Source: Candidatus Magasanikiibacteriota bacterium (GTDB lineage: Bacteria > Patescibacteriota > Patescibacteriia > Magasanikbacterales > UBA922). From it: DNA of 64,000 bases. Position numbers and translations under genes: made by a program. The notes beneath the pieces were generated by a model. That model saw only the letters and a list, made by a program, of their open reading frames with translations, had not been told where the DNA came from and did no database searches. The stretch spans positions 751-64,750 of the forward strand of contig JBPOIO010000004.1 of NCBI GenBank assembly GCA_052034405.1, read 5' to 3'. Numbering within the stretch: the stretch's first letter is position 1; each line of letters starts with the position of its first letter. This document shows, one piece after another, positions 13,185 to 28,160 of this stretch.

Positions 13185-14669
13185 CACGTCGGGAAGTTGC
13201 GCCAAAGCGCGACTTACCTGGAACGGATACTTTGCTTCAACTAGCAGAGTTTTTTGTTTCAGCGCGAGGTTCGAGAAGAGGGTCTGGCAGACCTCGCGTT
13301 TCTTCTCGGGCTCGCCAGCTTCGAACTTTTTCTTCGCTAGAACTGCGAACGAAATCCCCTCCATCAAGGGTTCGATGAGTCCCGCGACTGGACTGGCTCG
13401 TTCCAGTTGCGCACGGAGCGCAATCTGCTCGCTTGTGAGGGCTCTGCGGTCCTCATCAAGCTCCTCGCCGGTAATGCGACCCTCAGCAGCTAGATGACGA
13501 AGGTTTCGGAGCTTCTCGTCGTTCTTCACCAGTTTCGCTTCGACCGTTTGGACGACCCTCGACTCCGAATCGCAGACCTCAGCGCGAACGCTCCTCAGCT
13601 CGTCCAGCACGGCCTCCGCTACGTCAGGCGGGAGAGTGAGATCGTTGATGCTCAACGCGAGTTGCTCTTCAAGTGACACTTGCTCGACGGACGGCTCGTC
13701 GCAGTAGAGATATGCACGACTCTTTCGGCAGCAATGGTAGTACGTGTAGCGGGTTCCGAATCGGTTGACCTTGTTCTCCGCAGTGACGACGGACGCACAA
13801 GAACCGCATCTCAATATGCCACGGTATGGAAACCGGTTCGTTTGTGGGCGCGGTTCAGATGCACCCAGGCGCTTGAACTGCTCCTGTACTTCCTCGAACT
13901 CGGCCCAGGAGACGGCGGCGGGATGCGTGCCGGGGAACGATCCCTCCTTCCGAACCATCAGCCCGGCATAGAACGGGTCGCGCAGTGTCCGGTACAACAA
14001 CGACTGGGAAATCAACTTCCCACCGTGGCTCCGCATCACCGGAGTCGTCAGGTGCCACTCCTTGCGGGCTCGGTTGAGGATATCGGACATTGGCACCCCC
14101 ATTCGCCGCAATCGAAACGCCTCTCGAATTAGAGGAAGTCGCACCGGATCAGCCAGGAGCTTCATTGTCGAACGGTCGCGGGTGTAGCCAATTTTCGGAG
14201 CACCAGGCCAAAGGCCCTGTAGCAGTGCCTGCTTGTTGCCACGACATATGTTCTTGCGGAGGTCATCAATGTCTTTCGTGGCCATCCCGAAGATGATGGA
14301 CATCATGAGCTTGTCGTCACCTGACCCAGTGAACGCCCGCTCGGGCGTGAGGATCTCCTTGATCGCTCCGGTGCCGAGCAGCCACATGATGGAGCCACCA
14401 TCGATGGGGTTCCTCGCCAGACGGTTGAGATGCCAGCACAAGACTGCGTCGGCTTTCTTCGCGTTGAGCATGGCCATGACTCTTGCGAACTCTGGCCGGC
14501 CTGGTTCCTTCGCAGACCGCGTTTCGCGGATCGGCTCCCCCACGATGAGAAGATTGCGGGCCTGAGCAAATGAGAGAAGCTCCCGCTCCTGGGCTGGTAT
14601 TGAGAGCTGCTGCTTCCCGTCGTCGAGCGTGGATTTCCGCACGTAGACTACGTATTTCAATGGGTTCAT
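13173..14669 (-). CDS. large serine recombinase (integrase) of the GC-rich island
   Basis: N-terminal resolvase catalytic motif YVRKST..QQLSIPAQ with the serine nucleophile. It also has a recombinase domain, a zinc ribbon (CGSCASV...YYHCC) and a coiled-coil. Its stop codon lies inside the tRNA T-stem. Confidence 0.9.
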   Translation of the reverse strand: MNPLKYVVYVRKSTLDDGKQQLSIPAQERELLSFAQARNLLIVGEPIRETRSAKEPGRPEFARVMAMLNAKKADAVLCWHLNRLARNPIDGGSIMWLLGTGAIKEILTPERAFTGSGDDKLMMSIIFGMATKDIDDLRKNICRGNKQALLQGLWPGAPKIGYTRDRSTMKLLADPVRLPLIREAFRLRRMGVPMSDILNRARKEWHLTTPVMRSHGGKLISQSLLYRTLRDPFYAGLMVRKEGSFPGTHPAAVSWAEFEEVQEQFKRLGASEPRPQTNRFPYRGILRCGSCASVVTAENKVNRFGTRYTYYHCCRKSRAYLYCDEPSVEQVSLEEQLALSINDLTLPPDVAEAVLDELRSVRAEVCDSESRVVQTVEAKLVKNDEKLRNLRHLAAEGRITGEELDEDRRALTSEQIALRAQLERASPVAGLIEPLMEGISFAVLAKKKFEAGEPEKKREVCQTLFSNLALKQKTLLVEAKYPFQVSRALAQLPDVCTR

Positions 14670-14685
14670 ATTGTTGTCAAGTTAG

Positions 14686-14892
14686 TTAGTCAAAGAGGAC
14701 CACGTAGAAAGCTGCCACGAGGTCCTTCGCTACGATTCTGAGCTCGGCCGGTGACAAATCCCGTGGATGGTGTGGGTCACTGCGAAGGGCTTCACCAAGC
14801 CGAATGAGGAAGGCGGCGCTGGGCTCGTAGTTGCCGAGACATGCTAACCTCATACGCTGTGATTTGTGGTCATTAGATGAGTGCATATGCAT
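14686..14892 (-). CDS. hypothetical small protein next to the integrase (possible excisionase/RDF-like accessory)
   Basis: 68-aa ORF immediately upstream of and co-oriented with the recombinase. No motif. The functional guess is by position only. Confidence 0.3.
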   Translation of the reverse strand: MHMHSSNDHKSQRMRLACLGNYEPSAAFLIRLGEALRSDPHHPRDLSPAELRIVAKDLVAAFYVVLFD

Positions 14893-14950
14893 TCATCGTA
14901 ACAACTCATTGCTTGGTCGTCCCGTCGCACCGTGATGCGAAAATGAACAA

Positions 14951-14980
14951 AAGAAGAACTCCACGACCGGAGTTCTTCTT
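14951..14980 (-). terminator. perfect 12-bp-stem hairpin (aagaagaactcc/ggagttcttctt), terminator-like on the minus strand
   Basis: Perfect inverted repeat with a 6-nt loop. On the minus strand it is followed by ttgttcatttt. It sits between the transfer-gene block and the integrase pair. Confidence 0.35.
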
Positions 14981-15242
14981 CATGCTTGTCATCTCTCTTC
15001 TTCTGCCCTGTGGATAGCGTGGTCAGAATCCGACCATCGTGCTACGGGACTACATCTTGCGGCTATGAGAAGATATACTATGTAAGCCGCGAAATCGGGC
15101 AAGACGAGAGTTTGAAAATGTCGTCACCCCAGTCTCGCGGAAATATGTGCCCTAGGCAGGCCATTCATCCCAACAAGAGAGGAGGTGACATTAGGTAGAC
15201 TACAACTTGTGCATATTCTGTCAAGTGTAGGTACCAATAGCT

Positions 15243-15944
15243 ATGACAAACAATGAATCAGAACAACGCGTGCTGAGCGAGAAATCGCTCGTGTTCAACG
15301 TGGAAGTTCTTCGCAAGAACTTCAGCAAGCACGTGGTCACGCAAGAAGACCTCGCCACCATGACCGGCGTGCCGAGGAGCGCGGCTGCGATGGAGTCCTC
15401 CCAACTGCCCGGCCGTGGTGTTCGCCGGAGTTCGTTCGTCATAGCGTGTCTGGTCAAGGTCAACGTGGGGTCGCCCTTGGGCCAGTCCGCCGGCTTCGCG
15501 TCGAAGCACCTCCTTCTCGTCCGTGGTTTCCCCGAGTCGGTTCGGGGCGGCCTTCGCCGCCTCAGATTCGGTTCGCGCGACCGGACACGACTCCGCGCTC
15601 AGCACCTGCGAGGCGTCGGGGGTCATCGTGGTGGTCGGTCGCGTCTTCACGAGCCCGACGCTACGCGCGGCGGATCGAGTGGTCGAGCGCGCGAAGGGTG
15701 CCGTGGTGTCTGCCCCTGGTGTGGCCCCCTGGTGCGAGCCCCCGGTCAGTCCGACACACCACCCCTCGGCTTCTCATCTTCTTGGAATCACTCGGTTTTC
15801 AAGGAACGCAAAACAAGGAATCAGCCCCTTCTTGGGGCATCTCGTTCATCCGGCGCACGGACGCGGACGACCGCGCCACTCTGCGCTTCCACCTCGCGTT
15901 CGCCAAGGTCCGCGAGCCGGTACCAGCCGCTCGTCAGCGCGTAG
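15243..15944 (+). CDS. XRE-family HTH regulator (N-terminal about 65 aa); the long Arg/Gly-rich C-terminal continuation is doubtful
   Basis: LRKNFSKHVVTQEDLATMTGVPRSAAAMES resembles an XRE HTH. The rest of the 233-aa frame is low-complexity, typical of open frames in GC-rich DNA, and overlaps the Replic_Relax gene on the opposite strand. Confidence 0.4.
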   Translation: MTNNESEQRVLSEKSLVFNVEVLRKNFSKHVVTQEDLATMTGVPRSAAAMESSQLPGRGVRRSSFVIACLVKVNVGSPLGQSAGFASKHLLLVRGFPESVRGGLRRLRFGSRDRTRLRAQHLRGVGGHRGGRSRLHEPDATRGGSSGRAREGCRGVCPWCGPLVRAPGQSDTPPLGFSSSWNHSVFKERKTRNQPLLGASRSSGARTRTTAPLCASTSRSPRSASRYQPLVSA

Positions 15945-16693
15945 TTCACCGGCTCGGCCTTCAGGTCGAGGACCCGGCCGAAGACCGGACCACCGATGTC
16001 CACCGCCTGGCGGCCCAGGGCGGCGAGCCGCTTCACCGATTTCGCCACGATGAGCATGCCGTCGGGGACCAGGCCCGCGATCTCCATGCGCGCGGCGTGC
16101 ATCCGGGCGAAGAAGGCGATCTTGTTCTCGGCCACGTACTGCGGCCCCTCGGTGCCCGTGTCGATCTCCACGACGAAGCTGCGCCGGCGCTCGGCGTCCT
16201 CGACCGTGAGGACCGCGTCGGGCCTGTACTTGAGGATGGTCGGGAGGTGGGCCTGGTCAAGCTCCCACTCGAACTGGTAGCGAACCAGGCGCACCCCTCG
16301 GGACAACTCGCACTCGGCCACGACCCGGCTCCAGAAGCGGACGTTCATCAGGTGGTGCTCGCCCGGACCCGAATACTCGGCCGGCGCGCTGCGGGGCCTC
16401 TCGTCGAGGCCGAGGTCCTCGAAGAGCGCGATCTGACCCTTGCGGTCGAGCACGTACCGCGTCTCTTCGTGCAGCGCGTTGCAGTACCCGGCCAGGTACC
16501 CGGTATCCATGAGCTTCTTGAGTCGCCGGCGGGCCATCGCCACGGACGGGAAGTAGAGCGGCACGACGTCGGACACGGTGAGCACCTTGGCCTTTCGGAG
16601 GGCCTCGAAGAGCGCGAGGTCGCGCTCCTGGAGATCAGCCGCGCGTCCGGCGCGGCCGTTCCCCGATTGCCTGCCGAGTCCACGTCCCGCCAT
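15821..16693 (-). CDS. replication-relaxation family protein (Replic_Relax-like)
   Basis: N-terminal wHTH-like LQERDLALFEALRKAKVLTVSDVVPLYF...ARRRLKKLMDTGYL, then a conserved core (EWELD, YRPDAVL, FVVEIDTGTE) as in plasmid/ICE replication-relaxation proteins. Confidence 0.55.
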   Translation of the reverse strand: MAGRGLGRQSGNGRAGRAADLQERDLALFEALRKAKVLTVSDVVPLYFPSVAMARRRLKKLMDTGYLAGYCNALHEETRYVLDRKGQIALFEDLGLDERPRSAPAEYSGPGEHHLMNVRFWSRVVAECELSRGVRLVRYQFEWELDQAHLPTILKYRPDAVLTVEDAERRRSFVVEIDTGTEGPQYVAENKIAFFARMHAARMEIAGLVPDGMLIVAKSVKRLAALGRQAVDIGGPVFGRVLDLKAEPVNYALTSGWYRLADLGEREVEAQSGAVVRVRAPDERDAPRRG

Positions 16694-16705
16694 GAGTGTG
16701 AGCCG

Positions 16706-17026
16706 CTACACCTTCGGGTTGACGATGGACACCCCGCAGGTGTGGCAGTTGACGTAGGCGGGCGCGGTCTTGCAGGCCGGGCAGGCCGACCACACCCAGC
16801 CGTCGCGCGTGGCGCCGCAGGTCGAGCACTCCCAGAGCCCGTCCGCCGGTTGGGGCGGGCAGCCCCGCTTGCACTTCAACTCGCGCTTGACCACGGCCAT
16901 GCCGACCTTCCCGGTCTTGTAGGTCCACTTGCCAAAGGAGATCAGCTTGAAGAGCGCGGCCAGCGAGAAGACCACGGCCGCGTACATGAGCTGAAACGGC
17001 GCCAGAATCCAGCGAAGTTCATCCAT
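16706..17026 (-). CDS. small membrane protein with C-terminal Cys-rich zinc-ribbon-like domain
   Basis: It has one TM helix followed by CxxC...CxxC...CxxC spacing (CSTCG, CPAC, CHTCG). Confidence 0.4.
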   Translation of the reverse strand: MDELRWILAPFQLMYAAVVFSLAALFKLISFGKWTYKTGKVGMAVVKRELKCKRGCPPQPADGLWECSTCGATRDGWVWSACPACKTAPAYVNCHTCGVSIVNPKV

Positions 17027-17050
17027 GCCTTGCCCTCTTTCGAGTTGTTT

Positions 17051-19075
17051 CTATCCGATGAACGGCCCTCTTCGCGTCCGGTTGCCCTTGGGGCTCTGGC
17101 CTTCGTGGCCCTTCTCCTCCTTTCCCGTAGCCCGTTGCCCATCGCCCAGGGGGACTGGCGGCGGAGCCGTTTGGCCGCCAGGTTCGCGTTTGGGTTGCTG
17201 CTCGTCTGGCCGAGGCGCAGCCTCGACCTCCTCTTGTCGCCCCTCAGATTCCTTCGCTGGCCGCGGCCTCACCTTGCCCGGAGGTGGCCGCTGCGGATTG
17301 CGCCGATCAGGCTTCGAGCCTGGCTCCCTGACCTCGTGGGGCACCCGGTCGCGCAGATCGCGCCTCGGGTCGCGAGCGAAGCCGCCCGCCACTTCCTTGA
17401 TGTGGTGCTTGCGCTTCTCGATGGCCTCGTTGAGGACGTGCGCTGGCGTGCCGCAGCCGTACCCACGGCACAGGGCGCGCAGCTCGTCGGAGGCCCGGTC
17501 AGCGGCCCGGCGCAGATCGTCGAACGGGACCTCGGGCGCAATGAGCCGTGCTGCCGGCCGCCCCAGCGCCCGCGGGTAGAACCAAAAGTGGCGCTTCGGC
17601 AGACGAATCAGCTCTTCGACGTGGCGCGCTCGCTGCTCGCTGGGGCGCTCGACGCGGGTCTCGTAGCGTGGGCCGTCGAGATCTCGCCGAACGCGGCAGT
17701 GCTCCGAGACCGGGAACATGTGGGAGAAGCGCCGGGCATCGCTCGGCGACTGCTGGAACACGGTCTGGTAGCCGCAGGAGTTCTCGATGGTCGCGAGCAG
17801 CGCCGAGCTGCGGCTCGCCACCTGCGCCGGCAACTGGTTGATGAGCCAGAGCGCCACGTTCTTGTGCCGGGCTAGGGTGAGCAGGCTCTCGAAGTCGCCG
17901 GCCAGGTCCGCGTCGAGACCCAGCCACCACTCGTCGATGGCCGCGATCACGGGCCGGCGGGTATCACGTCGGGAGTAGATGGCCCGGGCAAGCCCACGCA
18001 CGAAGACCGAGATCCAGAACCGGGTCAGGAACTCGGCGCCGCGCGGAGCCCCGCCCAGGTTGACCACGGTGAGCGGCCCTTCAAGTAGGGAGGCATAGGA
18101 CACGCACCCTGGGGCGCAGAGCACGCGCGCCGTATCCTCGAAGAGCAGCAGGTCGAGCCGGGCCACCACGGCCTGCACCGACTCGGTCGGCTCCTGCGGG
18201 AACCGGTGGGTGAAGTACTCGCGGATCTCATAGTCCTCGACTTCCCTGAGGAGGCCGTTCAGGTACCGGTCGTTGATGAGCGCCGAGCGCAACTCGAGGA
18301 TGGACAACCCGCCGACCGAAAGCATGAGGCGCAGGGCGTTGAGGAGAATCCCCATCATCCGGACGCCCCAGTCACCCCCGGCCCCGCCGAGGGCCTCCCC
18401 GATGAGGTTGGCGATCTCCTTGGCGTGAAGCGAGCGCGAGATGCCGCCGACGGGAGCAAGCAGGTTCATTTCCGGGAGGTTGCTTTCGTCGAAGGGCGCG
18501 ACGACGTTCAGGCCACGAATGACCTCGATGATGTCGTCTTCTTCAGCGTCTCGGAGCATGGCCGGGAGGAGCAGATCGGTGATCCACTCGGCGCTCTCGC
18601 CCTTGGCGTCCACGTGCAAGAGGGACCACGGCATGCCCGGCCCGATGAGCTGCATCTCCTCGGCGAAGGTCTGCGCGCTCTTGCCCCGGCCCGTGGCCCC
18701 GACGATCCAGCGGTGGACGCCGTACAACTCCGAGACCGGTACGGCGACCGGGATGTCCTCGGCCTCGGCCAGGGTGCCCACGAGGACGCGAACACCATCC
18801 TCACCGGCCCGCTCGTCGAGATCGTTCAGAAGGTGGACTTCAGGCGGCGGGTCGAGGCTCTCAAAGTGGTGCTCGATGGCCGCCTCGACCAGCTTGCGCT
18901 TGGAGCCCACGAAGAGCCGCCGAAGGCCGGCTTCGAGCAGGCTCACGAGAGGATCCGCGTTTGCTGGAGAAAGAGGCGCATGACGACGCTTGCTCCTGGT
19001 TGCCGAGCCCCTGCCCGGGCCACGAAGCAAAGCGTAGGACGATTTCCGGGATCCGCAACTTTTTTTCTGAAGCAC
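17051..19075 (-). CDS. FtsK/TraD/VirD4-like P-loop ATPase (type IV coupling-protein-like) with Arg/Pro-rich C-terminal tail
   Basis: Walker A is GATGRGKS and Walker B is VIAAIDEWW. A WLINQLPAQ motif resembles the T4CP Q-motif. The TraM-recognition-like C-region is low-complexity. Confidence 0.5.
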   Translation of the reverse strand: MLQKKSCGSRKSSYALLRGPGRGSATRSKRRHAPLSPANADPLVSLLEAGLRRLFVGSKRKLVEAAIEHHFESLDPPPEVHLLNDLDERAGEDGVRVLVGTLAEAEDIPVAVPVSELYGVHRWIVGATGRGKSAQTFAEEMQLIGPGMPWSLLHVDAKGESAEWITDLLLPAMLRDAEEDDIIEVIRGLNVVAPFDESNLPEMNLLAPVGGISRSLHAKEIANLIGEALGGAGGDWGVRMMGILLNALRLMLSVGGLSILELRSALINDRYLNGLLREVEDYEIREYFTHRFPQEPTESVQAVVARLDLLLFEDTARVLCAPGCVSYASLLEGPLTVVNLGGAPRGAEFLTRFWISVFVRGLARAIYSRRDTRRPVIAAIDEWWLGLDADLAGDFESLLTLARHKNVALWLINQLPAQVASRSSALLATIENSCGYQTVFQQSPSDARRFSHMFPVSEHCRVRRDLDGPRYETRVERPSEQRARHVEELIRLPKRHFWFYPRALGRPAARLIAPEVPFDDLRRAADRASDELRALCRGYGCGTPAHVLNEAIEKRKHHIKEVAGGFARDPRRDLRDRVPHEVREPGSKPDRRNPQRPPPGKVRPRPAKESEGRQEEVEAAPRPDEQQPKREPGGQTAPPPVPLGDGQRATGKEEKGHEGQSPKGNRTRRGPFIG

Positions 19076-19116
19076 GCGCCAGGAGGAATGTGAGGCTGCG
19101 GGGACGGACGCCGGAA

Positions 19117-20121
19117 CTACGAGAGAAGAGCAAGAACGCCTTCGAGTTCGCTCCGGAGTGCCTTCTTCTCGGCGTCCGACAGCTCCTTGGCGTTGAACTT
19201 GACGGGGCGCAAGCGCACGTCACCGATCTTCAGGTTGGTGCCGTCCGAGCGGAAGATGCTCGGGAGCGACTTCTTCTCCGATGCGCCCCGGAACGCCTCA
19301 TTGACGTGCCGAACGATCTGCGGGATGGAGAGTTCCTCGTTGTTGATGCGCGTGACCCACTCGATGTAGTGGAGCTTCGGGTACCTAGCCTTGAGCTTCT
19401 TCAGGGTCAGGGCATGGGTCGCCTTGAAGGTGGTCCCTTCCTCCCCGATGGCCGTCTGCACCTCAGCCGGCAGGTCGAGGAGCGCCAAGAGGTTGTTCTT
19501 CTGGCGCTTGGTGAGGTTCATGAGCTCAGCGACCTCGAAGCTCTTGTACCCCGAGTCCTGGTACCGCTTGATCACGTAGGCCCGGTCGATGTCCGAGTAG
19601 GTCTTGCGGGCCATGTTCTCGAGGACCGAGGCCCGGAACGCCTCCTGGTCGTCCACCAGGTCCCGGCGAACGTAGGCGGAGATGAAATCCGCCTTCAGCT
19701 CAGTGAGTGCCGTAGCCCGACGGAAGCCCGAGACGAGCTGCCACTTGAACCCGTCCTCGGGGCGCGGGTGAGGACGAACGACGGCCGGGATCTGCTGACC
19801 ACTCTCGCGGATGCTCTTGACGAGGTCGGCCACCCGCACGACCGCTCGGAAGCGGTACGTCACGTCGCCGAGGTCGATTTCGCTGAGCGGGACCTGACGA
19901 ACCACCAAGTCGTTGTCGAGGACCGTGGGGACGTCCACTGGGACCCGGCTCGCACCAGGCGGACGACCGCGGCGCTTCGCCGCAGATGGAGCGGCCTCGG
20001 TTGTGGGAGCGGGGGGCGTCGGCTCGGGTGTGGAGGTTTCCATGACCCTACTAGACGGAGCCTTCGCGGCGACTTTGCGATCTTTTTTCAACTGGCTCGG
20101 TTTTGGTGCGGGTCGGGGCAT
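19117..20121 (-). CDS. ParB/Sulfiredoxin-domain protein (ParB-like partition/nuclease)
   Basis: N-terminal ParB motif (LSEIDLGDVTYRFR ... VSGFRRATAL) followed by HTH-like and C-terminal helical regions. The N-terminus is Pro/Ala-rich. Confidence 0.65.
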   Translation of the reverse strand: MPRPAPKPSQLKKDRKVAAKAPSSRVMETSTPEPTPPAPTTEAAPSAAKRRGRPPGASRVPVDVPTVLDNDLVVRQVPLSEIDLGDVTYRFRAVVRVADLVKSIRESGQQIPAVVRPHPRPEDGFKWQLVSGFRRATALTELKADFISAYVRRDLVDDQEAFRASVLENMARKTYSDIDRAYVIKRYQDSGYKSFEVAELMNLTKRQKNNLLALLDLPAEVQTAIGEEGTTFKATHALTLKKLKARYPKLHYIEWVTRINNEELSIPQIVRHVNEAFRGASEKKSLPSIFRSDGTNLKIGDVRLRPVKFNAKELSDAEKKALRSELEGVLALLS

Positions 20122-20182
20122 GATTATCTCCGCAGGTGATTGTGGAGAAGGTCATACGCCGACGAACAAGTGGCCGCAAGGT

Positions 20183-20198
20183 GGGAAATCGATTTCCC
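20183..20198. promoter_or_regulatory. perfect 16-bp palindrome GGGAAATCGATTTCCC in the divergent promoter region (candidate operator)
   Basis: Perfect palindrome between the divergent parB-like gene and the plus-strand operon. A near-identical copy is at 25386–25401. Confidence 0.4.
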
Positions 20199-20297
20199 GG
20201 GGCTTACCGGTTCCGCGACGCTTGACGGTTGGTCATCAGGCTGCTAACCATCCCGACAAGCTATGAAATCCAGCACAATAACTTGTAACAACACGGT

Positions 20298-20999
20298 GTG
20301 GAGCGCCTGTTGAGTGATCGTGAGTACGACTCGACAACGGAGGTCACAAGCGAGATCATTCAGCTAGCTGAAGCCGAATCGTTGGAAGAAGCCGTCGCAA
20401 AGTTGAACATGCTTCCGCTTACCGGCACCTCGAAAATTGCACTCAAGATGCTGTCCCCGTGGACCCGCGGCGGTGCCGAGACGTACGTGACAACATTTGA
20501 TATCACGGCGGGGGCGGAGTGTGCTCCTTGCATTCTAAAGGCCTGTGTGGCGTTCGCCATCACGCCTGGCGGAGTAGAAGCAATTCTGGAGTCGTGGATC
20601 GCCCGTAGACGGTTACTTGCGGCCCATGGAGCAGCGGTCCCGCGGCTCTATGCATACGGCCGCGGGGTCGTTCTCGAGGAACGACTTCCTTACAGAGCGC
20701 AGGACTTGATCGCTGCCAAATCTGCGACACGCCCCGCTGTATTAGCAAGCCTTTTCAAGTTGACCCGCGCCTTGGAGCAGGTACGATTCCAGCCCGTATC
20801 AATACTCCCTGATGTCATGTCGGACGGAGAACGGGCCGTTCTGGTGGATTTCGGCCAGGATCTTGGAGACCCGATGCCTGCCGAAACCGACGTAGACACC
20901 TACGCCCGCACGGTCGCCTCGCTCACACAACTCGGAATAAATCTCAGCCCCGAAGAGCAGGAACTTACACTTGCCGTGCATAACGGCCACGTACACTAG
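20298..20999 (+). CDS. hypothetical protein, first gene of the island operon (weak protein-kinase-like features)
   Basis: 233-aa ORF. Weak resemblance to kinase motifs (CILKAC as a possible beta3 Lys, VLVDFGQD as a possible DFG). Speculative. Its stop overlaps the next gene. Confidence 0.35.
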   Translation: MERLLSDREYDSTTEVTSEIIQLAEAESLEEAVAKLNMLPLTGTSKIALKMLSPWTRGGAETYVTTFDITAGAECAPCILKACVAFAITPGGVEAILESWIARRRLLAAHGAAVPRLYAYGRGVVLEERLPYRAQDLIAAKSATRPAVLASLFKLTRALEQVRFQPVSILPDVMSDGERAVLVDFGQDLGDPMPAETDVDTYARTVASLTQLGINLSPEEQELTLAVHNGHVH

Positions 21000-22005
21000 G
21001 ACCAGAATGAAAATTCGTGACGCAGTCGAAGCAGCGCATTCCGTGAACGACGGGGCAACCGTAGTTGCCCCCCTAGATCTCGGCGGGAACGAGCAGAACC
21101 AGCTTCTGATGTTCCTGAAACCGGAGACCTTCCTGAGCAACGATAGGGAAACGCCAGCAACGGTGGCCGATCTTGCTGACCGCCTCATCAACTCGTTCCG
21201 ACTGCGGATGTCTGGGATCATCGGAGTGTCCGGGCCGACGCTCGGGTCACTCCGTGCAATGGACAAGCACTACGGCTTCATCAACAAGATGTCACGGGCT
21301 GCATCCGTCTCGCTGGATGCCAAAACGCTTGAAGGTCTTCGGTCCCGGTATGCCACTGGACCGGATGGCGCGGTTCTGGGTGGCCACGAGTTCCTTGAGC
21401 GTCATCAGGACTGGGATGCCCAGAAGCTGGACACGCTGTGGGCGACGAAGAAGAGCGACCGAATTCGAAGTGGCCTGTATGCTCAGCTCTACGACATTCC
21501 CGGCACTGGACCGACCATCCTGCTCAACGGCTTTCATCCTGCACAACTTGAACACTTCACTGCGCCAGGTCGAAAGGTCATCCTGATCGTGCTGAACAGC
21601 GACCTGCCCTGGTCTGTTCTGCGACGACGGATGCTCGGTGACACCTTCCCGGAGAAGGCGGTTGCGGGCTCGTTCAGGCGCGCACTCTACGACACCCGAG
21701 AGAAGTTGGGCTTGCCGGACGTCTCAATCGCCAACAATTTCGCGCATCTCTCGGCTGGACCATTCGAAGCTGCGTTTGAACTGAACAACTTCCTCGGATC
21801 TGTCTGCCCAGACCAGTTCACAATTGCGAACAGCCGATTGTGGAAGCACGGCCTGCGAATCGGGTTGACCAACGACCAGTTGGCTGGGTCACTCAACAAT
21901 CCGCCCGTGGAGGTCGCTGGAACGCGGCTTCCGCTCTTCGACGCTACCGAAGATTGTGACTCGCTGACCTCTCTTCAGCTGCTGGCATCGCACGGCGCGG
22001 GCTGA
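20971..22005 (+). CDS. nucleoside-diphosphate-kinase-like protein with an approximately 70-aa insertion (start probably at Met 21007)
   Basis: By-eye alignment to Ndk. LMFLKPETF matches IIKPNAV. FHPAQLEHFTAPGRKVILIVL matches FF.GLVEFMTSGPIVV.VL. RRRMLGDTFPEKAVAGSFRRALYD matches LLGATNPA.ALAGTLRADYA. NNFAHLSAGPFEAAFEL matches NGTHGSDSVESAAREI, with the catalytic His retained. Confidence 0.5.
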   Translation: MPCITATYTRTRMKIRDAVEAAHSVNDGATVVAPLDLGGNEQNQLLMFLKPETFLSNDRETPATVADLADRLINSFRLRMSGIIGVSGPTLGSLRAMDKHYGFINKMSRAASVSLDAKTLEGLRSRYATGPDGAVLGGHEFLERHQDWDAQKLDTLWATKKSDRIRSGLYAQLYDIPGTGPTILLNGFHPAQLEHFTAPGRKVILIVLNSDLPWSVLRRRMLGDTFPEKAVAGSFRRALYDTREKLGLPDVSIANNFAHLSAGPFEAAFELNNFLGSVCPDQFTIANSRLWKHGLRIGLTNDQLAGSLNNPPVEVAGTRLPLFDATEDCDSLTSLQLLASHGAG

Positions 22006-22018
22006 ATCGAGGCGACCT

Positions 22019-22873
22019 ATGGCGTCAAGTGCACCACGCGGCTGGCTCGGAAAAACGGCTGGCGTATTTAGCCTACACGAGTCTGACCGTACGTGCGGAT
22101 CGTATATTTCTATCCGAGACGCTGCCACGATTCTAAAGGTCGACCCTGCCGAACTCGACCACTACCGGCTCGCACAGCACGGCGAGCAAGATTTCACGAC
22201 AGACAAGACGCTTGGTCGCGCATGGGCTTCTGGCCAGATCACGAGTCCTCGCACATCCATGCGGCGCGGAAATTCCATGGTAAGTTTCGACGAACTCATC
22301 GTGCTCACTCTCATTGAGTTGACCTTGCCTGGTGCAGCCGTTCATCCGCAAAAAGAGGTTGATAGGTTCCTGATAGACTTTCTCGTGGAACACAATGGCG
22401 TAACAATTGCGCTTGAGTTTTGCGGACCGCACCACTTCATTCGACGACACCCAGGAGAGCGCACGCCCCTGGACCCGCGTGTTCGCGCTGAGCGCATTTC
22501 GCGGCTGCTGAACGTCGAGTGCGTTATCTGGCCGTATTGGGTCCAACGATGTGAGTCAAACGTCCGAGCCCTTTTTGATTCCTCAGTGCGCGGAATCGCC
22601 AGCGTTTGGTCAACAAGCGCCCAGTTCGGCAACTTTTCATTTCCTGACTCTCACAAAGTGATTCAGGACATCAACGCGCGCTTTCGAGTGGAACGGGAAA
22701 CTGGCATCGGGTACATGTACACTGACGAAATCGTGAGCAAGCCAGTGCACCCCGTGGTCTCCCAGATTAGACGGGGACGGGAGTCCGTTTCAAAACTCGT
22801 CCCGCCCGGTTCCACATCGTCGAAGCGATACTGGGTTCCACGGGTGCTTTGGTCCGTAATCGACGGTGGCTAG
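22019..22873 (+). CDS. DUF559/Vsr-like restriction-endonuclease-fold protein
   Basis: DRFLIDFLVEHNGVTIALEFCGPHHF followed by DPRVRAERISRLLNVECVIWPYW matches the DUF559 pattern (DF..x..L.iE.DG..H ... D..R...L...G..V.R). The usual Asp is replaced by Cys (EFCG). Confidence 0.45.
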   Translation: MASSAPRGWLGKTAGVFSLHESDRTCGSYISIRDAATILKVDPAELDHYRLAQHGEQDFTTDKTLGRAWASGQITSPRTSMRRGNSMVSFDELIVLTLIELTLPGAAVHPQKEVDRFLIDFLVEHNGVTIALEFCGPHHFIRRHPGERTPLDPRVRAERISRLLNVECVIWPYWVQRCESNVRALFDSSVRGIASVWSTSAQFGNFSFPDSHKVIQDINARFRVERETGIGYMYTDEIVSKPVHPVVSQIRRGRESVSKLVPPGSTSSKRYWVPRVLWSVIDGG

Positions 22874-24641
22874 CATGACTGACGACTTTCACGTCGACGC
22901 CGGCCTAATTCAAGCAGCGCAGGCGCTGGCGCGCATCATGCGAGAGCAGGAGTTCTGCCTCTACCTAACCGGGCTCGCCGCGTCAGGGAAGACCGCCGCA
23001 GCAGAAATCATTTCGCGGATGACGGGTGTGCCCGTTGTTGACTCCGGCCTGGTATTCCGACTCGCTGCCTATCTTTGCGTACATGTTCCTGTCGCAGCAG
23101 AGAATCCGGGCGTGCTCGCCCGCCTCTTGGGTGAGCACACAATCAAGGTCGTGAACGGGCAATATCGAATTCTGTCTGGTGACTCGGACATTACGGAGAG
23201 ACTTCAGGCGCCAGATGTCGGCTCTCAGGCGACTGCAACGGCCGCGGAACCTAGACTTCGAGAAGTGATTCTTACCTTTCTAAGATCTAGGACGAAGGCG
23301 CCAGCCATCGTGGCTGCACGCGGCGTTACTGAACCACTCACAACAGGAAACTTCGTTCAGATAGAATTGCGAGCAGACCTAGAGGTTCGCGCGGCTCGGC
23401 GCGCTAAGCAAAGTGGTTCGCCAGTTGCTACGATTCGAAAGAGCATACGAGCTCGAGACGACCGCGACCAACGCGGCCCGTCACGGTATCCAAGCGCTGA
23501 CTTTGTTGACAGTTCGAAACTGACCCTTCATGAGACCGTAGCCCGAGTTGTTGAAAGAACGACCGCGCGGATTTCTCGCCTTCTGAGCATCTCTGAATTT
23601 AGGAAAGTTGAGTTCAACAACGCTGAACAGCTGAGCAACCCCTTGCTTGTACGTCTCTGGGCCGAAGCACAGGCAGGACTTGAGGAGGAAGAAAGCACAC
23701 AGGGCATCCCGAAGGGGCACGCGAAAGCACGTTTTCTCCTCAATCTCTCGCGTTACTCGTCGCTGGATCTACTGGGACTGTCGCATTCATGGATGCCTGG
23801 GGCTCTGCCGGGACTTGTGGACACAGCCGCTGCTGTCCCCGCAAACGACTTGCTGATGCGCGAGTGTGCTAGAACGGTGGAAGAGCGGGCCAAGTCGATT
23901 CGGCGATTCATGGAAGCGACACGCTTTCCGAGTGCTATTTTTGATGAAAGATCCCTTCGGCTTGAGCTTGTTCGAGGGCGACCAGTGGGGACCTCGGAAG
24001 GTGGAGAGGTGGTAGAACACTATCACCTCCGTGACACGTCCCCAGAAGTCGGCATGTGGCTCGAAAACAATCTTCACTACTTAGGTGCAGCACGCCTCGA
24101 CACCACTCATAGAGTCGCGCTTGTAGAAGCGTCGAGTGAATTTCCTGTCCTGTACTTGTCATTCGCTCCAAACACTCGCAAGTACATGGAGCCGCTCCTG
24201 TGGCGAGTCGGACTCAGGTTAGAGGAGGTTGCTGTCGCAGTACGTGGCTACGGAACGCCCCGTTGTCCTCGGAATGCGATGGCATGGTTCCTTCGTGAGG
24301 CATGTGCTCGGGTCAAGCAAGACTTTCCACATCTCCGTGCCGTTGTCACAGACATCAACCCCAACTGGGGCTTCAGCGGATCGTCCTTTCAGGAGGCCGG
24401 ATTTGTCACGTTGGGAATGAAGTACGCTCCCACAAGCTTTGTCGCGGGCGATTATTCCCCGCGACGGAGCCTCGAGCGCCAACCCGGAAGCCGCGCGGCA
24501 GTTGGGAACAGACTGCCGCTGGTTCCAACGTTGGTCATGATTAGGCCATTTCCCAAGGAATCCATTCTTCGAACACGTATTGCAGAGTCGGTGGTTGATG
24601 GTGTATACTTGATACCTCGGGACTTGTATGAAGAAAAATAG
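22866..24641 (+). CDS. cytidylate-kinase-like P-loop kinase fused to a C-terminal GNAT-like acetyltransferase domain
   Basis: N-terminal about 235 aa align by eye to Cmk: LYLTGLAASGKTAAAEIISRMTGVPVVDSGLVFRLAA versus ITIDGPSGAGKGT...LLDSGAIYRVLA; LSGDSDITERLQAPDVGSQATATAAEPRLRE; IRARDDRDQRGPSRYP versus IKERDDRDRNRAVAPL. The C-terminus has a GNAT-like motif A (VRGYGTP) and NPNWGFSGSSFQEAGF. Confidence 0.55.
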   Translation: MASMTDDFHVDAGLIQAAQALARIMREQEFCLYLTGLAASGKTAAAEIISRMTGVPVVDSGLVFRLAAYLCVHVPVAAENPGVLARLLGEHTIKVVNGQYRILSGDSDITERLQAPDVGSQATATAAEPRLREVILTFLRSRTKAPAIVAARGVTEPLTTGNFVQIELRADLEVRAARRAKQSGSPVATIRKSIRARDDRDQRGPSRYPSADFVDSSKLTLHETVARVVERTTARISRLLSISEFRKVEFNNAEQLSNPLLVRLWAEAQAGLEEEESTQGIPKGHAKARFLLNLSRYSSLDLLGLSHSWMPGALPGLVDTAAAVPANDLLMRECARTVEERAKSIRRFMEATRFPSAIFDERSLRLELVRGRPVGTSEGGEVVEHYHLRDTSPEVGMWLENNLHYLGAARLDTTHRVALVEASSEFPVLYLSFAPNTRKYMEPLLWRVGLRLEEVAVAVRGYGTPRCPRNAMAWFLREACARVKQDFPHLRAVVTDINPNWGFSGSSFQEAGFVTLGMKYAPTSFVAGDYSPRRSLERQPGSRAAVGNRLPLVPTLVMIRPFPKESILRTRIAESVVDGVYLIPRDLYEEK

Positions 24642-24644
24642 CCT

Positions 24645-25217
24645 ATGAGAATCCTTGTAGCCACCCGCAACAGGGACAAATTCAATATCGTCAAGCGCCT
24701 GGTAGAAGCAACTGTGCCGGACGCACATCTTGTTTTTCTCGGCGACACTCCGATCAGCGGAGACGTTGTTGAAGCAGGGTCAATCCACGAACGCGCCCGG
24801 CAAAAGGCAGTGTACTTTTGGGGGCGCTTGGAGTGGTCTACAATAGCCGACGACTTCGATTCAGTGCTGGCGGTGGACGACGGGCTGAGCGTCGGCGGCG
24901 CGGAAGCCACGCCTCACTCCAAAGAGATGACAGAACGAATACTCAGTGAGGCGTGGCCAACGGGAACTAAGGTGGATGTCGTTCGCGCGTTTTGCCTGAT
25001 AAGGCGTGGGGAAGTGCCGCGTGTGGAACTCACGGCGATCCCGTTTGTATTTGTAGGCAATCCACATGGCGTCCAACGTGAAGACGGTACGTATCCGTTG
25101 AGCCAGGTCCTTAGCCCCGAGGGAATGGCTCAACCAGTGTCTCAACTCACAAACGATGAAGAAGATGCATTCTACCTTCGCCACTCTCGGGAGCCGCTCG
25201 TTGCGCTGTTCTCATAG
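24645..25217 (+). CDS. Ham1/ITPase-like (RdgB-family) non-canonical NTP pyrophosphatase-like protein
   Basis: MRILVATRNRDKFNIVKRLV versus MKIVFATGNKGK; TIADDFDSVLAVDDGLSVGGAEAT versus AIADDSGLAVDVLGGAPG. It starts 4 nt after the upstream stop. Confidence 0.5.
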   Translation: MRILVATRNRDKFNIVKRLVEATVPDAHLVFLGDTPISGDVVEAGSIHERARQKAVYFWGRLEWSTIADDFDSVLAVDDGLSVGGAEATPHSKEMTERILSEAWPTGTKVDVVRAFCLIRRGEVPRVELTAIPFVFVGNPHGVQREDGTYPLSQVLSPEGMAQPVSQLTNDEEDAFYLRHSREPLVALFS

Positions 25218-25260
25218 TGATCGGCACCCCAAATCATGGACATTGGCAATCAAGTAATTG

Positions 25261-25297
25261 CTCGACCAGGGTCCTGACTTCTATCCTCGCTGTGCAC
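25261..25297 (+). repeat. 37-bp direct repeat copy 1 (CTCGACCAGGGTCCTGACTTCTATCCTCGCTGTGCAC), candidate att/junction site
   Basis: 33 of 37 positions are identical to 27494–27530. Weaker similarity extends about 14 nt upstream. It contains a GTGCAC core. Confidence 0.6.
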
Positions 25298-25385
25298 TAA
25301 CCGTGAGCATGTCGAACTGAGCATGCTCTAACGAAACATCGCGTAATTGCGATGTTTTCATTTTCTAAGCAGTCGTTCGAGCACG

Positions 25386-25401
25386 CGGGAAATCGACTTC
25401 C
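25386..25401. promoter_or_regulatory. second copy of the GGGAAATCGAyTTCCC palindrome (one mismatch) upstream of the PD-(D/E)xK gene
   Basis: GGGAAATCGACTTCCC, about 57 nt upstream of the ATG at 25458. It is adjacent to the palindrome GAGCATGCTC at 25311–25340. Confidence 0.35.
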
Positions 25402-25457
25402 CAGCAATTCGAACAGGGCTTGTTGGCCTTTCTCTGATATGGTAACATTTAACTAAT

Positions 25458-26291
25458 ATGTTGAAATCACACATGGCTGCCCGCGAGGGCGTACTGCTTG
25501 CCAGCAGTAAGGTCGCAGCAAATACAGGGCATTCGCTTCATAAGGGAACGCCTCGCGAGATCTTTATCCGCGAGTTCCTGGAAAGCCATCTCGCCGAGAC
25601 CGTCGCGATCGGCACTGGCGAAGTGATCGACTCAGAATCGATGCCGAATCCGCCACCGACAAGACAGCGCAATCAGTACGACATCATCATTTACAAGAAG
25701 AATTATCCAAAACTCGCCATCGGCGGTGGGATCTCGGCGTTTCTTTGCGAGTCGGTTGTAGCGACAATCGAAGTGAAATCCACTCTCACTAAGGATGAGC
25801 TACAATCGAGTGCAAGAGCCGCGCGAGCTGCGAAGCTACTCAAACCCAGTAGAGTCGAGGCTTTCAGGACAGGCTACCACCCGCCGTCGATCTTGAACTA
25901 CGTCGTGGCATATGACGGACCTGCATCAATGAAGACTGTGGCCGGTTGGCTACAGGATGCTGACGCGTACGCTGGAGTGCCAGGGCATCCGGATCTAAGT
26001 GGTGCCGACAGAACTCAGAAGGCGAGCCCGAGCCTCGATGGCGTGTTCGTGATGGGCAAAGGGTTCATGTTGTACGGCAATTCACCACTTTCTATTCTTT
26101 CGGTGGACGACCGCAAACGTGCGTCGAACCTCAAATGGGAATTCGCTGACTGCGAAGTTGGAAGTCTGTTCTTGCTATTCGTAACGTTGAGCCAAGTCGT
26201 GAGTGGGCACTCTGCGACCTGGCTCGACGCTGGGCCATACCTCAGCGGATTCTCTGTCCAAAATGATTCAATTGGCATGGTCGGCTGGTAG
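25458..26291 (+). CDS. PD-(D/E)xK nuclease-fold hypothetical protein
   Basis: DIIIYKK ... ESVVATIEVKST gives the D...(E)xK arrangement typical of restriction-endonuclease-like folds. No closer family recognised. Confidence 0.4.
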   Translation: MLKSHMAAREGVLLASSKVAANTGHSLHKGTPREIFIREFLESHLAETVAIGTGEVIDSESMPNPPPTRQRNQYDIIIYKKNYPKLAIGGGISAFLCESVVATIEVKSTLTKDELQSSARAARAAKLLKPSRVEAFRTGYHPPSILNYVVAYDGPASMKTVAGWLQDADAYAGVPGHPDLSGADRTQKASPSLDGVFVMGKGFMLYGNSPLSILSVDDRKRASNLKWEFADCEVGSLFLLFVTLSQVVSGHSATWLDAGPYLSGFSVQNDSIGMVGW

Positions 26292-27380
26292 TACCAAGCT
26301 CGGTTGCAGGTTATTACTGAGCTGTATGCGGAGCACTAGTTCGTCAAGTCGCATCTTCTCTTCAAGCGCGTCCATCTGTTCTGATGGCACCCCAGTTGCG
26401 CTTCTAAGCTGTGATCGAACCATCGTCTCTAGTTTCTCCGCGTCAGTGCTGAATCGACAGCCCGTTCGATGGCACCGATAATAGCGATAGACTCGTCCAT
26501 TTCTCTTCATGTGTTGTTCGCCGACAAGGAATCCCAAACAATTTGGACAAGTGACCTTTCGAGCGAGTAGGAAGTGCAAGTGCTTCCGAGGCTGCCCGCC
26601 GCTGTGCTTCTGCCGAAAGACTTCCTGGCTTCGGTCGAATATCTCCTTGGTGATCAATGATGGATGAGTACCGGTGTACTCAACACCCACGACGACCATC
26701 TTCCCCATGTAGAATGAGTTGTGGAGGATCGCACAGACCTTTGCTGCACTGACTTTCTTGCCGTGCCGGCTGACGAGGCCAGCACGGTGCAGTTCGTCAG
26801 CAAGCTGAGCGCTTCCGACTTGACCAGTGGCCCAGCGCTCGAAAGCCATCTTTATGAATCTTGCTCGGGCAGGGTCAACGACGACTTTGCCGTGCTCCTT
26901 GAGATACCCAAGAGGAGGAAGTCCACACCATCCTCCACGAAGGAGCTTCTCTTCGATCCCCCTCTTGACTTGTTGCGCCAGGTTGGCGCTGTAGAATTCT
27001 GCTTGTGCTGACATAATACGTTCAATGAATTGACCAACTGGAGTTTCTTCGCAGTTCTCCACGGCCGAAACGATTCGAACACCGTGGCGACGGAGCCGCT
27101 CCTTGATGGTCAGATAAGTAAACATGTCGCGTGCCAGTCGGTCGAGACGGTGAACGAAGAAGATGTTCACGTCGCGACTGCGACACGCAACGTCGAGTCC
27201 AGAGAGAAGGCCTGTTCGTCCACGGAATGATGTGCCACTCGCCACGTCCGTGAACGTCCCCGCAGCAACCCAACCTCGCTCAGAACAAAGTCGTCGAAGC
27301 GTGCGCAGTTGTGCTGGAATTGAAAGATCCTTCTCCCCTTGCTTGCTCGTTGAAACGCGAGCGTAGAGTATGACTGACAT
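26268..27380 (-). CDS. serine recombinase (resolvase/integrase family, 370 aa) of the sub-element
   Basis: It has the YARVSTSKQ catalytic motif, a recombinase domain and a zinc ribbon (CPNC...YRCHRTGC). Confidence 0.85.
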   Translation of the reverse strand: MSVILYARVSTSKQGEKDLSIPAQLRTLRRLCSERGWVAAGTFTDVASGTSFRGRTGLLSGLDVACRSRDVNIFFVHRLDRLARDMFTYLTIKERLRRHGVRIVSAVENCEETPVGQFIERIMSAQAEFYSANLAQQVKRGIEEKLLRGGWCGLPPLGYLKEHGKVVVDPARARFIKMAFERWATGQVGSAQLADELHRAGLVSRHGKKVSAAKVCAILHNSFYMGKMVVVGVEYTGTHPSLITKEIFDRSQEVFRQKHSGGQPRKHLHFLLARKVTCPNCLGFLVGEQHMKRNGRVYRYYRCHRTGCRFSTDAEKLETMVRSQLRSATGVPSEQMDALEEKMRLDELVLRIQLSNNLQPSLVLPADHAN

Positions 27381-27493
27381 ATGATGTTGAGTTAATGACT
27401 ACACTCTTCATCATACACCTTTGATGGTACAGCGTGATGTTCATACTGTCCCGTAGCACCGTGATTCGTTTCTGAACATCCAGTCAACATCTT

Positions 27494-27530
27494 CTCGACC
27501 AGGGTTCTGACTTCTCTTCTCGCGGTGCAC
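27494..27530 (+). repeat. 37-bp direct repeat copy 2 (CTCGACCAGGGTTCTGACTTCTCTTCTCGCGGTGCAC) at the island/host junction
   Basis: It is followed immediately by AT-rich host sequence. GTGCACAC is shared with the tRNA 3' end. Confidence 0.6.
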
Positions 27531-27540
27531 ACATAAAAAA

Positions 27541-27570
27541 AGCTTCCTTTTGGAAAGCTTTTTTTGTTTT
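27541..27570. terminator. symmetric hairpin terminator (aaagcttcc-tttt-ggaaagcttttttt), probably bidirectional
   Basis: Perfect stem flanked by A-run and T-run. It lies immediately downstream of the minus-strand gene ending at 27575. Confidence 0.5.
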
Positions 27571-27574
27571 TCTT

Positions 27575-28075
27575 TTATTGAATCTTCCAGTTCCGTGCGG
27601 CAATATCGGCTGTTGGTTCACTATCTCTTTCCAAATCTTCTGGTAAAAATTCAAGCAGTGCAAAACGCAAATCTACAGGATTTTGATCACTCAAAGGAAC
27701 ACGCATGAGTGGTCGAATAATATTTTTTGTTTCAAAAAAAAGTGTCTTGACTGGAGGTTCATAAATAATATAAAAACCTTCAAGTTCAGAATATGGATAA
27801 AAACGATTTCCAATAATCACGCCAAGGTCTGTAATGGCAAAAGGAATAGTATGTGGTTCTTGGTGTTGTTGTACAAAAAGAATAATGGCAAAGAGCGCAA
27901 TAATCAAAGAAAACAAAAAGTTTCCAGTAAACATTCCGTACGCAATAAACACCAAACCCAGTCCTCCCATAACAAAATACCACAGTCGCCCACGAACCAT
28001 TTTTTCGTATTCTGGAAAAGTCCATTCAAAAAGTGGATTTCCAATCGATGTTTCTTCGGTAATTTGTTGTGGCAT
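27575..28075 (-). CDS. hypothetical membrane protein
   Basis: ATG at 28075 (MPQQITEETS). It has two or three TM helices. No motif. Confidence 0.45.
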   Translation of the reverse strand: MPQQITEETSIGNPLFEWTFPEYEKMVRGRLWYFVMGGLGLVFIAYGMFTGNFLFSLIIALFAIILFVQQHQEPHTIPFAITDLGVIIGNRFYPYSELEGFYIIYEPPVKTLFFETKNIIRPLMRVPLSDQNPVDLRFALLEFLPEDLERDSEPTADIAARNWKIQ

Positions 28076-28160
28076 AAAAAAACAAAGTATTTTTATATAT
28101 GTATAGTATAACAAAGCCCATTGTAAAACACAAGAAAAATCGTTATACTATACAAGCACT

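Follow-up and report, generated by a model that had tools for sequence, protein, structure and literature searches.

Within a genomic island of a Candidatus Magasanikiibacteriota bacterium, two 37-bp direct repeats enclose a 2.2-kb segment that carries its own serine recombinase gene. The question raised by this locus is whether the segment is a separate mobile element nested in a larger one, and what the repeats are. The island lies beside a tRNA-Arg gene in the window, i.e., the whole stretch of 64,000 nucleotides (nt) that was analyzed (positions 751 to 64,750 of the forward strand of contig JBPOIO010000004.1, assembly GCA_052034405.1); all coordinates below are those of the window. An earlier note, made from the letters of this DNA, had proposed two elements integrated in tandem at one attachment (att) site or a small satellite that hijacks the att site of a larger element. 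Our analyses support that proposal: the island is probably a composite of two integrative elements, X (13188-25299) and Y (25300-27532), each driven by a large serine recombinase (LSR) and brought together by site-specific accretion. Three lines of evidence bear on this: only 1 nt separates the start of the repeat homology from the predicted crossover dinucleotide, the 2.2-kb segment is missing from the elements most closely related to the larger one, and the segment has a conserved att left arm of its own.

RESULTS

Direct repeats and the genes between them

The repeats, DR_left (25261-25297) and DR_right (27494-27530), are identical at 33 of 37 positions and are spaced 2,233 nt apart, as found by a repeat search of the window. 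By chance, the 14,345-bp island would be expected to contain ~9e-8 such pairs, and blastn aligns the two copies with an E value of ~2e-9. Upstream of the repeats, the DNA similarity is weaker (44 matches in 83 aligned columns) and becomes clearer when the minus strand is read as protein (CTARREVRTLVEKML versus CTARIEVRTLVEQLL). Only two open reading frames lie between the repeats, one for a DUF6602/PD-(D/E)xK protein and one for a 370-amino-acid serine recombinase.

The positions and identity of the repeats, the weaker similarity upstream of them and the gene content (the last by Pfam and PADLOC) all agree with what the earlier note had described, as does the core shared with the tRNA-Arg region, GTGCACAC, at 13180-13187 and 27525-27532. 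The note had stated that its reading would fail if the repeats were absent on independent resequencing; the arrangement was separately assembled in at least 10 sequencing runs. The reading was also to fail if the repeats belonged to a longer, ordinary duplicated gene fragment. They do belong to a duplicated gene fragment in the literal sense, but the reading does not fail, since that fragment is, on our reading, itself an att half-site.

Attachment sites of the island

The insertion point of the whole island (13188-27532; 14,345 bp) is the 3' end of tRNA-Arg, and its core is 8 bp long. The features that define its ends are as follows.

13113 to 13184/13185, plus strand: tRNA-Arg(GCG), the chromosomal target and B' arm of attB (ARAGORN, Rfam)
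13180 to 13187, no strand: attL core GTGCACAC, common to attB, attP, attL and attR (seen as an overlap of 8 nt both in the attP junction and in the empty attB)
27525 to 27532, no strand: attR core, the second occurrence of GTGCACAC
27533 to 27570, plus strand: host terminator hairpin, left arm of attB, directly after tRNA-Arg in the empty site

All four att sites are documented, with a single core. The empty attB is present in two contigs of sister Magasanikbacteria (L185 and L186), in which the terminator hairpin directly follows tRNA-Arg and the flanks of the window overlap by 8 nt (L185, whose flanks are 98% identical to those of the window) or 7 nt (L186). The attP junction, at which window position 27532 is joined to 13180 with an 8-nt overlap, occurs at 99.99 to 100% identity in Logan contigs from two samples (L001-L004), and these contigs contain the 2.2-kb segment. 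The island is a site-specific integrative element with core GTGCACAC that is found in joined (circular or attP) form.

In the orientation of the LSR gene, the center of dyad symmetry of attP lies inside the core at GTGT/GCAC (13 of 24 positions symmetric), which places the predicted crossover at the boundary between the discriminator and the acceptor stem of the tRNA. The putative crossover dinucleotide, CA at 13183-13184, comprises the last acceptor-stem base and the discriminator. An outer GAAC motif ends 25 nt from the center in the P' arms as opposed to 20 nt in the tRNA arm. The possibility that the P' arm is functionally equal to the tRNA arm, such that integration would regenerate attB, was rejected because GAAC is situated 5 nt further out in the P' arms. 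A 5-bp offset of this kind between attP and attB has reportedly been described for serine integrases.

The G+C content rises from ~38 to 40% in the flanks to 55 to 69% between 13.2 and 27.5 kb, and the host is, by RecG similarity, a relative of Candidatus Magasanikbacteria; the composition suggests that the island was recently acquired from a high-G+C donor. Among 72,556 known plasmids (PLSDB), there was no close match to the island, with no match to its HerA-like protein and at most 25% identity to its LSR.

Repeats as half-sites and recombinase tails

Three features describe the repeats and the coding sequence attached to them.

25261 to 25299, no strand: DR_left, ancestral P' half-site and tail of X, now internal; its minus strand encodes CTARIEVRTLVEQLLDCQCP and a stop codon
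27494 to 27530, no strand: DR_right, the functional P' half-site of the composite attP
27392 to 27532, minus strand: replacement tail borne by Y, the last 46 codons and stop of the 540-amino-acid recombinase (circular form)

In X-type elements, attP is located inside the 3' end of the LSR gene, and each repeat is best read as the element-side half-site (P' arm) of attP, ~37 bp long, and at the same time as the coding sequence with which the C-terminal tail of the LSR begins. On the minus strand, DR_right encodes a tail beginning CTARREVRTLVEKML, and DR_left encodes a homologous short tail, CTARIEVRTLVEQLLDCQCP, that ends at a stop codon. From the core GTGTGCAC to GGTC (36 nt), DR_right is 100% identical to the arms of L022 and L023, the two closest relatives of X, and identity collapses beyond this point, indicating that the repeat is constrained as DNA, i.e., as a P' arm. 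DR_left has four mismatches to the consensus arm, one of which turns the GAAC motif into GGAC. The sequence on the outer side of DR_left (25200-25260) shows homology to that which follows the recombinase tail in L023, and both L022 and L023 lack the 2.2-kb segment and have antisense cargo directly after the recombinase tail. Because DR_left retains this L023-like flank, it appears to be the ancestral arm in its native context, with DR_right having apparently arrived with the insert. The repeats are not copies of the tRNA end but P' half-sites, in which the large recombinase has its tail encoded as well; MAFFT misaligned the tRNA end with the two repeats, and the register was set manually from the crossover.

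The two recombinases and the mini-element

The recombinase of X and the components of Y are listed here.

13173 to 14669, minus strand: LSR of X (Pfam Resolvase, Recombinase, Zn_ribbon_recom)
25300 to 25360, minus strand: left att arm of Y, with AGTTCGACATG 12 nt from the crossover (25305-25317), then a hairpin (25333-25358)
25458 to 26291, plus strand: cargo of Y, a DUF6602/PD-(D/E)xK nuclease-like protein of 277 amino acids (Pfam, 3.5e-22; PADLOC PD_DExK, 6.9e-25; NucC)
26268 to 27380, minus strand: LSR-370, the recombinase of Y (Resolvase, 4.7e-30; Recombinase, 9.9e-11)

The LSR of X has 498 amino acids when integrated, with its final codons read from the tRNA, and 540 amino acids in the circular form, in which the reading frame continues across attP for 46 codons through 27532-27395 (Logan gene call and reconstruction). 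There, its stop codon lies 11 nt upstream of the start of LSR-370 according to gene callers. The protein, hereafter LSR-540, has the resolvase, recombinase and zinc-ribbon domains of a serine integrase, all above cut-off (PF00239, 1.8e-17; PF07508, 3.9e-06; PF13408, 1.3e-05). Relatives of LSR-540 at 80 to 86% identity end in DVCTARREVRTLVE followed by 9 to 10 unrelated residues. Members of this family are typically 511 to 517 amino acids long, and the body of LSR-540 joined to the DR_left tail predicts 516.

LSR-370 contains the catalytic domain (PF00239, 4.7e-30, residues 3-151) with the motif YARVS and Ser10, as well as the recombinase domain (PF07508, 9.9e-11). The cysteines at positions 278, 281, 303 and 308 are conserved, and although the zinc-ribbon profile scores below its cut-off (17.3 versus 25.3 bits), the AlphaFold model (predicted local distance difference test score of 91.5) has a beta-ribbon at residues 284-313. 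The model shows no long coiled-coil arm, only helices at 314-329 and 338-348, and LSR-370 is ~140 C-terminal residues shorter than full-length relatives. Its gene and that for the DUF6602 protein converge and overlap by 24 nt. The hairpin in the left arm of Y (25333-25358) scores as a plus-strand terminator in a terminator scan.

An arm and hairpin of the same type, at the same 12-nt distance from the crossover, occur beside tRNA genes next to three relatives of LSR-370: in L013 (59% identical, at tRNA-Glu), in L187/L188 (65% identical, at tRNA-Val) and in L105 (51% identical, at tRNA-Arg, with arm motif GGTTCAACAGG). For L105 and L188, the comparison covers the tRNA-side junction. L013 is a complete 2.7-kb element that stands alone. 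Its ends are marked by a 9-bp core (GTGTAGCCC), the terminator of the host and a P' arm in which GTTCGAAC has P-type spacing; a 13-nt repeat, CAGTGCTTC(A/G)CTG, was considered as its boundary and dropped in favor of these ends. No LSR-540-family gene was present in the fetched flanks of L013, L105 and L188. A profile scan of genome contigs with the LSR-370 family alignment, in a collection from which the genome of the window is absent, recovered only distant relatives (32 to 51% identity), and in these contigs they never co-occurred with LSR-540-family genes. Because the Y arm also borders relatives of LSR-370 at tRNA-Glu, tRNA-Val and tRNA-Arg genes, the 2.2-kb segment appears to be a true mini-element accreted onto a larger one, and we assign its left arm provisionally to LSR-370.

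Proposed accretion of Y and X

The composite origin of the island is carried by three observations. First, the internal att site is chimeric, with the left arm of Y fused at the crossover to the P' arm of X and its L023-homologous flank. Second, each component has relatives that lack the other (X-type elements L022 and L023; Y-type element L013). Third, the composite excises as a unit, the attP contigs including the 2.2-kb segment.

In the scheme that we propose, both LSR families would target the 3' ends of tRNA genes, cutting at the discriminator/acceptor boundary inside GTGCACAC. The order of events is one that we infer: X may have entered a site between tRNA-Arg and a Y already in place, or Y may have entered X, through its distal att site or its attP, and the sequence alone does not tell these routes apart. 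By either route, the internal junction would consist of the left arm of Y and the old P' arm of X, the chimeric site that accretion predicts, and DR_right, brought by Y, would now serve as the P' arm of the composite and as the tail of the X recombinase. The composite would now excise and integrate as one unit through its outermost sites. Integration would cut the recombinase of X from 540 to 498 amino acids and split an LSR-540/LSR-370 operon that would exist only in the circular form. It is plausible from this layout that expression or activity of the recombinases depends on the state of integration, and the tail swap may have a regulatory effect. When integrated, LSR-370 follows a host terminator and a host gene of the same orientation (27575-28114, minus strand).

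Several points weigh against accretion as the origin of the island. Canonical serine integrases are not known to recombine attP with hybrid sites, and either route would seem to need relaxed site selectivity or hybrid-site recombination. Canonical LSRs require the coiled-coil arm for synapsis, and the modeled LSR-370 lacks most of it, such that its activity is uncertain. The hypothetical junction of a Y circle is symmetric at 11 of 24 positions, which is not significant. Three recurrent cassettes of similar layout (see below) lack a recombinase, which means that the layout can arise without an LSR on the cassette. Finally, no contig contained Y excised alone, and none contained X without Y at this level of identity. 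The 23 Logan contigs examined that include the adjacent 190-amino-acid gene represent 10 distinct places, all collinear with the window, and the nesting is seen in every one of them that extends at least as far as the DUF6602 gene.

Two contigs, L020 and L021, were considered as a variant with a 272-amino-acid DUF6602 protein; this was rejected, the DNA being identical and only the start call differing. The contigs of the SRR131918xx runs (L005-L012, L020 and L021) all end inside the LSR-370 gene, at window-equivalent positions 26602-27020, and L005-L007, which are longer, begin close to 20290. These ends could reflect low coverage, strain variation or a repeat.

Other explanations of the arrangement

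LSR-370 could instead be the accessory second subunit of a two-recombinase system, such as CcrA/CcrB or DsiA/DsiB, with DR_left a mere scar of module acquisition. This is improbable. In its favor, the circular form has the two LSR genes in one orientation with 11 nt between them, genes of the LSR-540 and LSR-370 families occur together in three independent elements (the window, L024 and L017), LSR-370 has no coiled-coil arm, and Dehalococcoides islands pair a 540-amino-acid CcrB-like LSR with a smaller serine recombinase (PMC3146451). However, a constant partner would be expected of such a system, and the closest relatives of X (L022 and L023, LSRs 80 to 86% identical) have no second recombinase; relatives of LSR-370, for their part, adjoin tRNA genes with an att arm of their own and no LSR-540-family gene in the fetched flanks. 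In L024, moreover, the two genes are separated by 3.4 kb. The best NCBIfam matches of the LSRs are CcrB and CcrA, but the scores fall far below the equivalog cut-offs (86 to 89 versus 700 to 900 bits). An obligatory CcrA-like partnership is disfavored.

It is likewise unlikely that Y is a still-active satellite that excises and reinserts through the 37-bp repeats and thereby toggles the tail of the X recombinase between 540 and 516 amino acids. The repeats are direct, TG is retained at both sites as the predicted central dinucleotide, LSR-370 appears in sequence and model to have its catalytic, recombinase and zinc-ribbon domains intact, and deletion of Y would leave an in-frame LSR of 516 amino acids, a length typical of the family. 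The junctions expected of such activity are AGTTCGACATGCTCACGGTTAGT joined to GCACCGCGAGAAGAG and CTTCCCGACGTGT joined to GCACAGCGAGGATAG; a Y circle would join AGTTCGACATGCTCACGGTTAGT to GCACCGCGAGAAGAGAAGTCAGAACC, X without Y would join CAACTTCCCGACGTGT to GCACAGCGAGGATAGAAGTCAGGACC, and Y alone at tRNA-Arg would join CACGGTTAGT to GCACTCGCTAAGAATCGAAC. Yet neither the deletion nor the Y-circle junction was present in the fetched contigs, and viral contigs scanned with the 37-mer, the consensus P' arm and the Y left arm gave no match. Two further features run counter to present activity: DR_left has four substitutions, one of them in the conserved GAAC motif, and the usual partner arm of Y (a tRNA, with B-type spacing) is replaced by a P-type arm.

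That the repeats are a chance match, an assembly artifact or an ordinary duplication without site-specific recombination is effectively refuted, for although the repeat does belong to a duplicated gene 3' end, the chance expectation is minute, the arrangement was assembled independently many times, and the boundary of homology coincides with the crossover core both here and in L017, L024, L041 and L098.

Nested layouts and tRNA targets in other elements

Second copies of the recombinase tail were sought in 80 metagenome loci of the LSR-540 family (JGI) together with the earlier loci. No fewer than five further, divergent elements have the nested layout. In L024 and L017, the tail-flanked modules carry LSR-370-family genes, and in L037 (an AbiEii/AbiEi pair), L041 and L098, they contain no LSR; the module of L041 encodes, among others, 2'-5' RNA ligase and HIT-domain proteins, and that of L098 an IS200-like transposase. 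The second tail copy in L017, L024, L041 and L098 begins with the homologous Cys codon, the marker of the crossover, and follows a hairpin rather than the body of a recombinase. The repeat of L037 lies further downstream in a longer tail and cannot be assigned to the same register.

The clearest array-like case is L017 (554-4942), in which three direct tail copies delimit two successive modules: the first is 1.1 kb long with no called gene, and the second encodes a nucleotidyltransferase-domain protein and an LSR, LSR-396.

In more than 50 loci (within L027-L104 and L105-L184), the LSR gene reads in antisense orientation into a tRNA gene, whose 3' end it overlaps by 7 to 60 nt. The targets include Ser, Asn, Gln, His, Arg, Val, Leu and other tRNAs, and the hosts include Actinomycetota, Clostridia and the candidate phyla radiation (CPR). 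Both LSR families thus appear from these junctions to be general tRNA targeters, a behavior that has been called rare among serine recombinases (PMC3218068).

The recurrence raises a broader possibility, which we put forward tentatively and consider rather doubtful: mini-elements of the LSR-370 type and their recombinase-less derivatives may specifically colonize the attP and 3' tail of larger tRNA-targeting LSR elements, the replacement P' arm of each newcomer restoring both the attP and the recombinase C terminus of its host, and so build an integron-like cassette array. The cargo of such cassettes has so far included a PD-(D/E)xK nuclease, an AbiE pair, nucleotidyltransferase-domain and HIT-domain proteins and a HerA-like ATPase. 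Membership in an integron-type cassette system proper was rejected, there being neither a tyrosine recombinase IntI nor attC.

A different arrangement is shared by more than 20 distant LSR-540-family loci: an inverted copy of the last 60 to 155 nt of the LSR gene lies immediately upstream of that gene (including L081 7298-9252, L090 5526-7430, L094, L097, L099, L072 and L086). The two copies are 80 to 100% identical, mostly above 93%. The right copy ends exactly at the tRNA crossover, and the inverted left copy is followed by a P'-like arm at P-type spacing, so that the LSR gene is bracketed by attL and an inverted, intact attP-like site. These inverted tails may constitute an inversion switch that exchanges the tail of the recombinase. 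Some cases at contig ends could be assembly fold-backs; several are internal.

Backbone and cargo of the larger element

X is a 12-kb element that, in addition to its 540-amino-acid LSR, has a backbone of ParB, HerA-like and Replic_Relax genes and a five-gene cargo operon.

15821 to 20121, minus strand: backbone block (Pfam, PADLOC; relative L023 with the same gene order)
15821 to 16693, minus strand: Replic_Relax gene
16706 to 17026, minus strand: open reading frame of 106 amino acids
17051 to 19075, minus strand: HerA/FtsK-like ATPase
19117 to 20121, minus strand: ParB-like protein
20298 to 25217, plus strand: cargo operon, genes for 233, 344, 284, 591 and 190 amino acids (one domain match)

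The backbone order of L023 (ParB, large ATPase, 106-amino-acid frame, Replic_Relax) is the same as that of X. The only domain match in the cargo operon is a CMP-kinase-like domain in the 591-amino-acid protein, and PADLOC found no match among the five genes (20298-25217); the operon may encode an undescribed defense or nucleotide-modifying system. The backbone of the island (Replic_Relax, HerA/FtsK-like ATPase and ParB-like protein) resembles that of actinomycete integrative and conjugative elements (ICEs).

One 15,353-nt contig of SRR10609169 (L001/L003) contains window positions 24073-27532 and 13180-15374 at 100% identity, a shared part that comprises the end of the cargo operon, Y, attP and the LSR gene. 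The remaining backbone of this contig is wholly different from window positions 15375-24072 and encodes a TrwB-like ATPase, a DnaG-like primase, a sigma factor and an 868-amino-acid protein. The recombination module has evidently been swapped between the two backbones, judging from this comparison.

DISCUSSION

Tandem accretion and co-transfer of composites are established for ICEs, integrative and mobilizable elements (IMEs) and cis-mobilizable elements (CIMEs) (PMC5704250). Like the accretion composites of Streptococcus (those related to ICESt1 and ICESt3), the island has three direct att-type sites, of which the internal one is chimeric, its integrases are distantly related (26% identity) and share one target, and the composite moves as a unit. 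Some related cassettes have, as in CIMEs, lost their recombinase. Unlike those composites, which mostly involve tyrosine integrases and repeats of a target-gene 3' end, both enzymes here are LSRs, and the repeat is an element-side half-site that doubles as recombinase coding sequence, with the nested element supplying a new C terminus.

The ssrA islands of Dehalococcoides form tandem arrays with a 540-amino-acid CcrB-like LSR and a second, small serine recombinase (PMC3146451). They resemble our island in their tandem arrangement at a tRNA-like gene, a crossover in the T-loop/acceptor region, an LSR of ~540 amino acids on the reverse strand by attL, a second smaller serine recombinase and a ParB-domain gene, and some of their members have no integration module. 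In Dehalococcoides, the small recombinase (~200 amino acids, without a DNA-binding domain) belongs to every integration module, whereas the second LSR here has 370 amino acids, with a recombinase domain and zinc ribbon, and is part of a separable element with its own att arm.

Staphylococcal cassette chromosome (SCC and SCCmec) elements (CcrAB, CcrC) likewise insert through LSRs at the 3' end of a conserved gene, whose end is restored, and form composites with several direct-repeat att sites. Unlike SCCmec, the target here is a tRNA gene, not rlmH, and the gene whose 3' end is replaced is the recombinase gene of the element itself. The domain order of resolvase, recombinase and zinc ribbon is shared with the phage serine integrases of A118, Bxb1 and phiC31, as are the dyad symmetry of attP and an outer motif placed 5 nt further from the center in attP than in attB; the island differs from them in the tRNA target, the location of attP within the integrase frame and the absence of a long coiled-coil arm from LSR-370; the tandem layout, too, would imply hybrid-site recombination, unlike in those phages.

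Composites formed by accretion through serine integrases are poorly documented, unlike those of tyrosine-integrase ICEs and IMEs, and none has been described from CPR/Patescibacteria in the literature that we searched. The island differs from known cases in having two LSRs, a half-site repeat that doubles as recombinase coding sequence and a CPR host carrying a high-G+C element. The locus provides attB, attP, attL and attR as well as a chimeric internal site for two families of tRNA-targeting serine integrases, each site defined within a few base pairs except for the inferred crossover dinucleotide, and these are candidate orthogonal integrase/att pairs.

With attP inside the integrase frame, integration or nesting rewrites the C terminus of the enzyme, a possible tie between the state of integration and recombinase activity. 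If the colonization of recombinase tails proves true, the cassette array behind the recombinase gene would travel with its host element. That tail-flanked cassettes recur suggests a general way for such elements to accumulate small cargo genes, of which some are defense-like.

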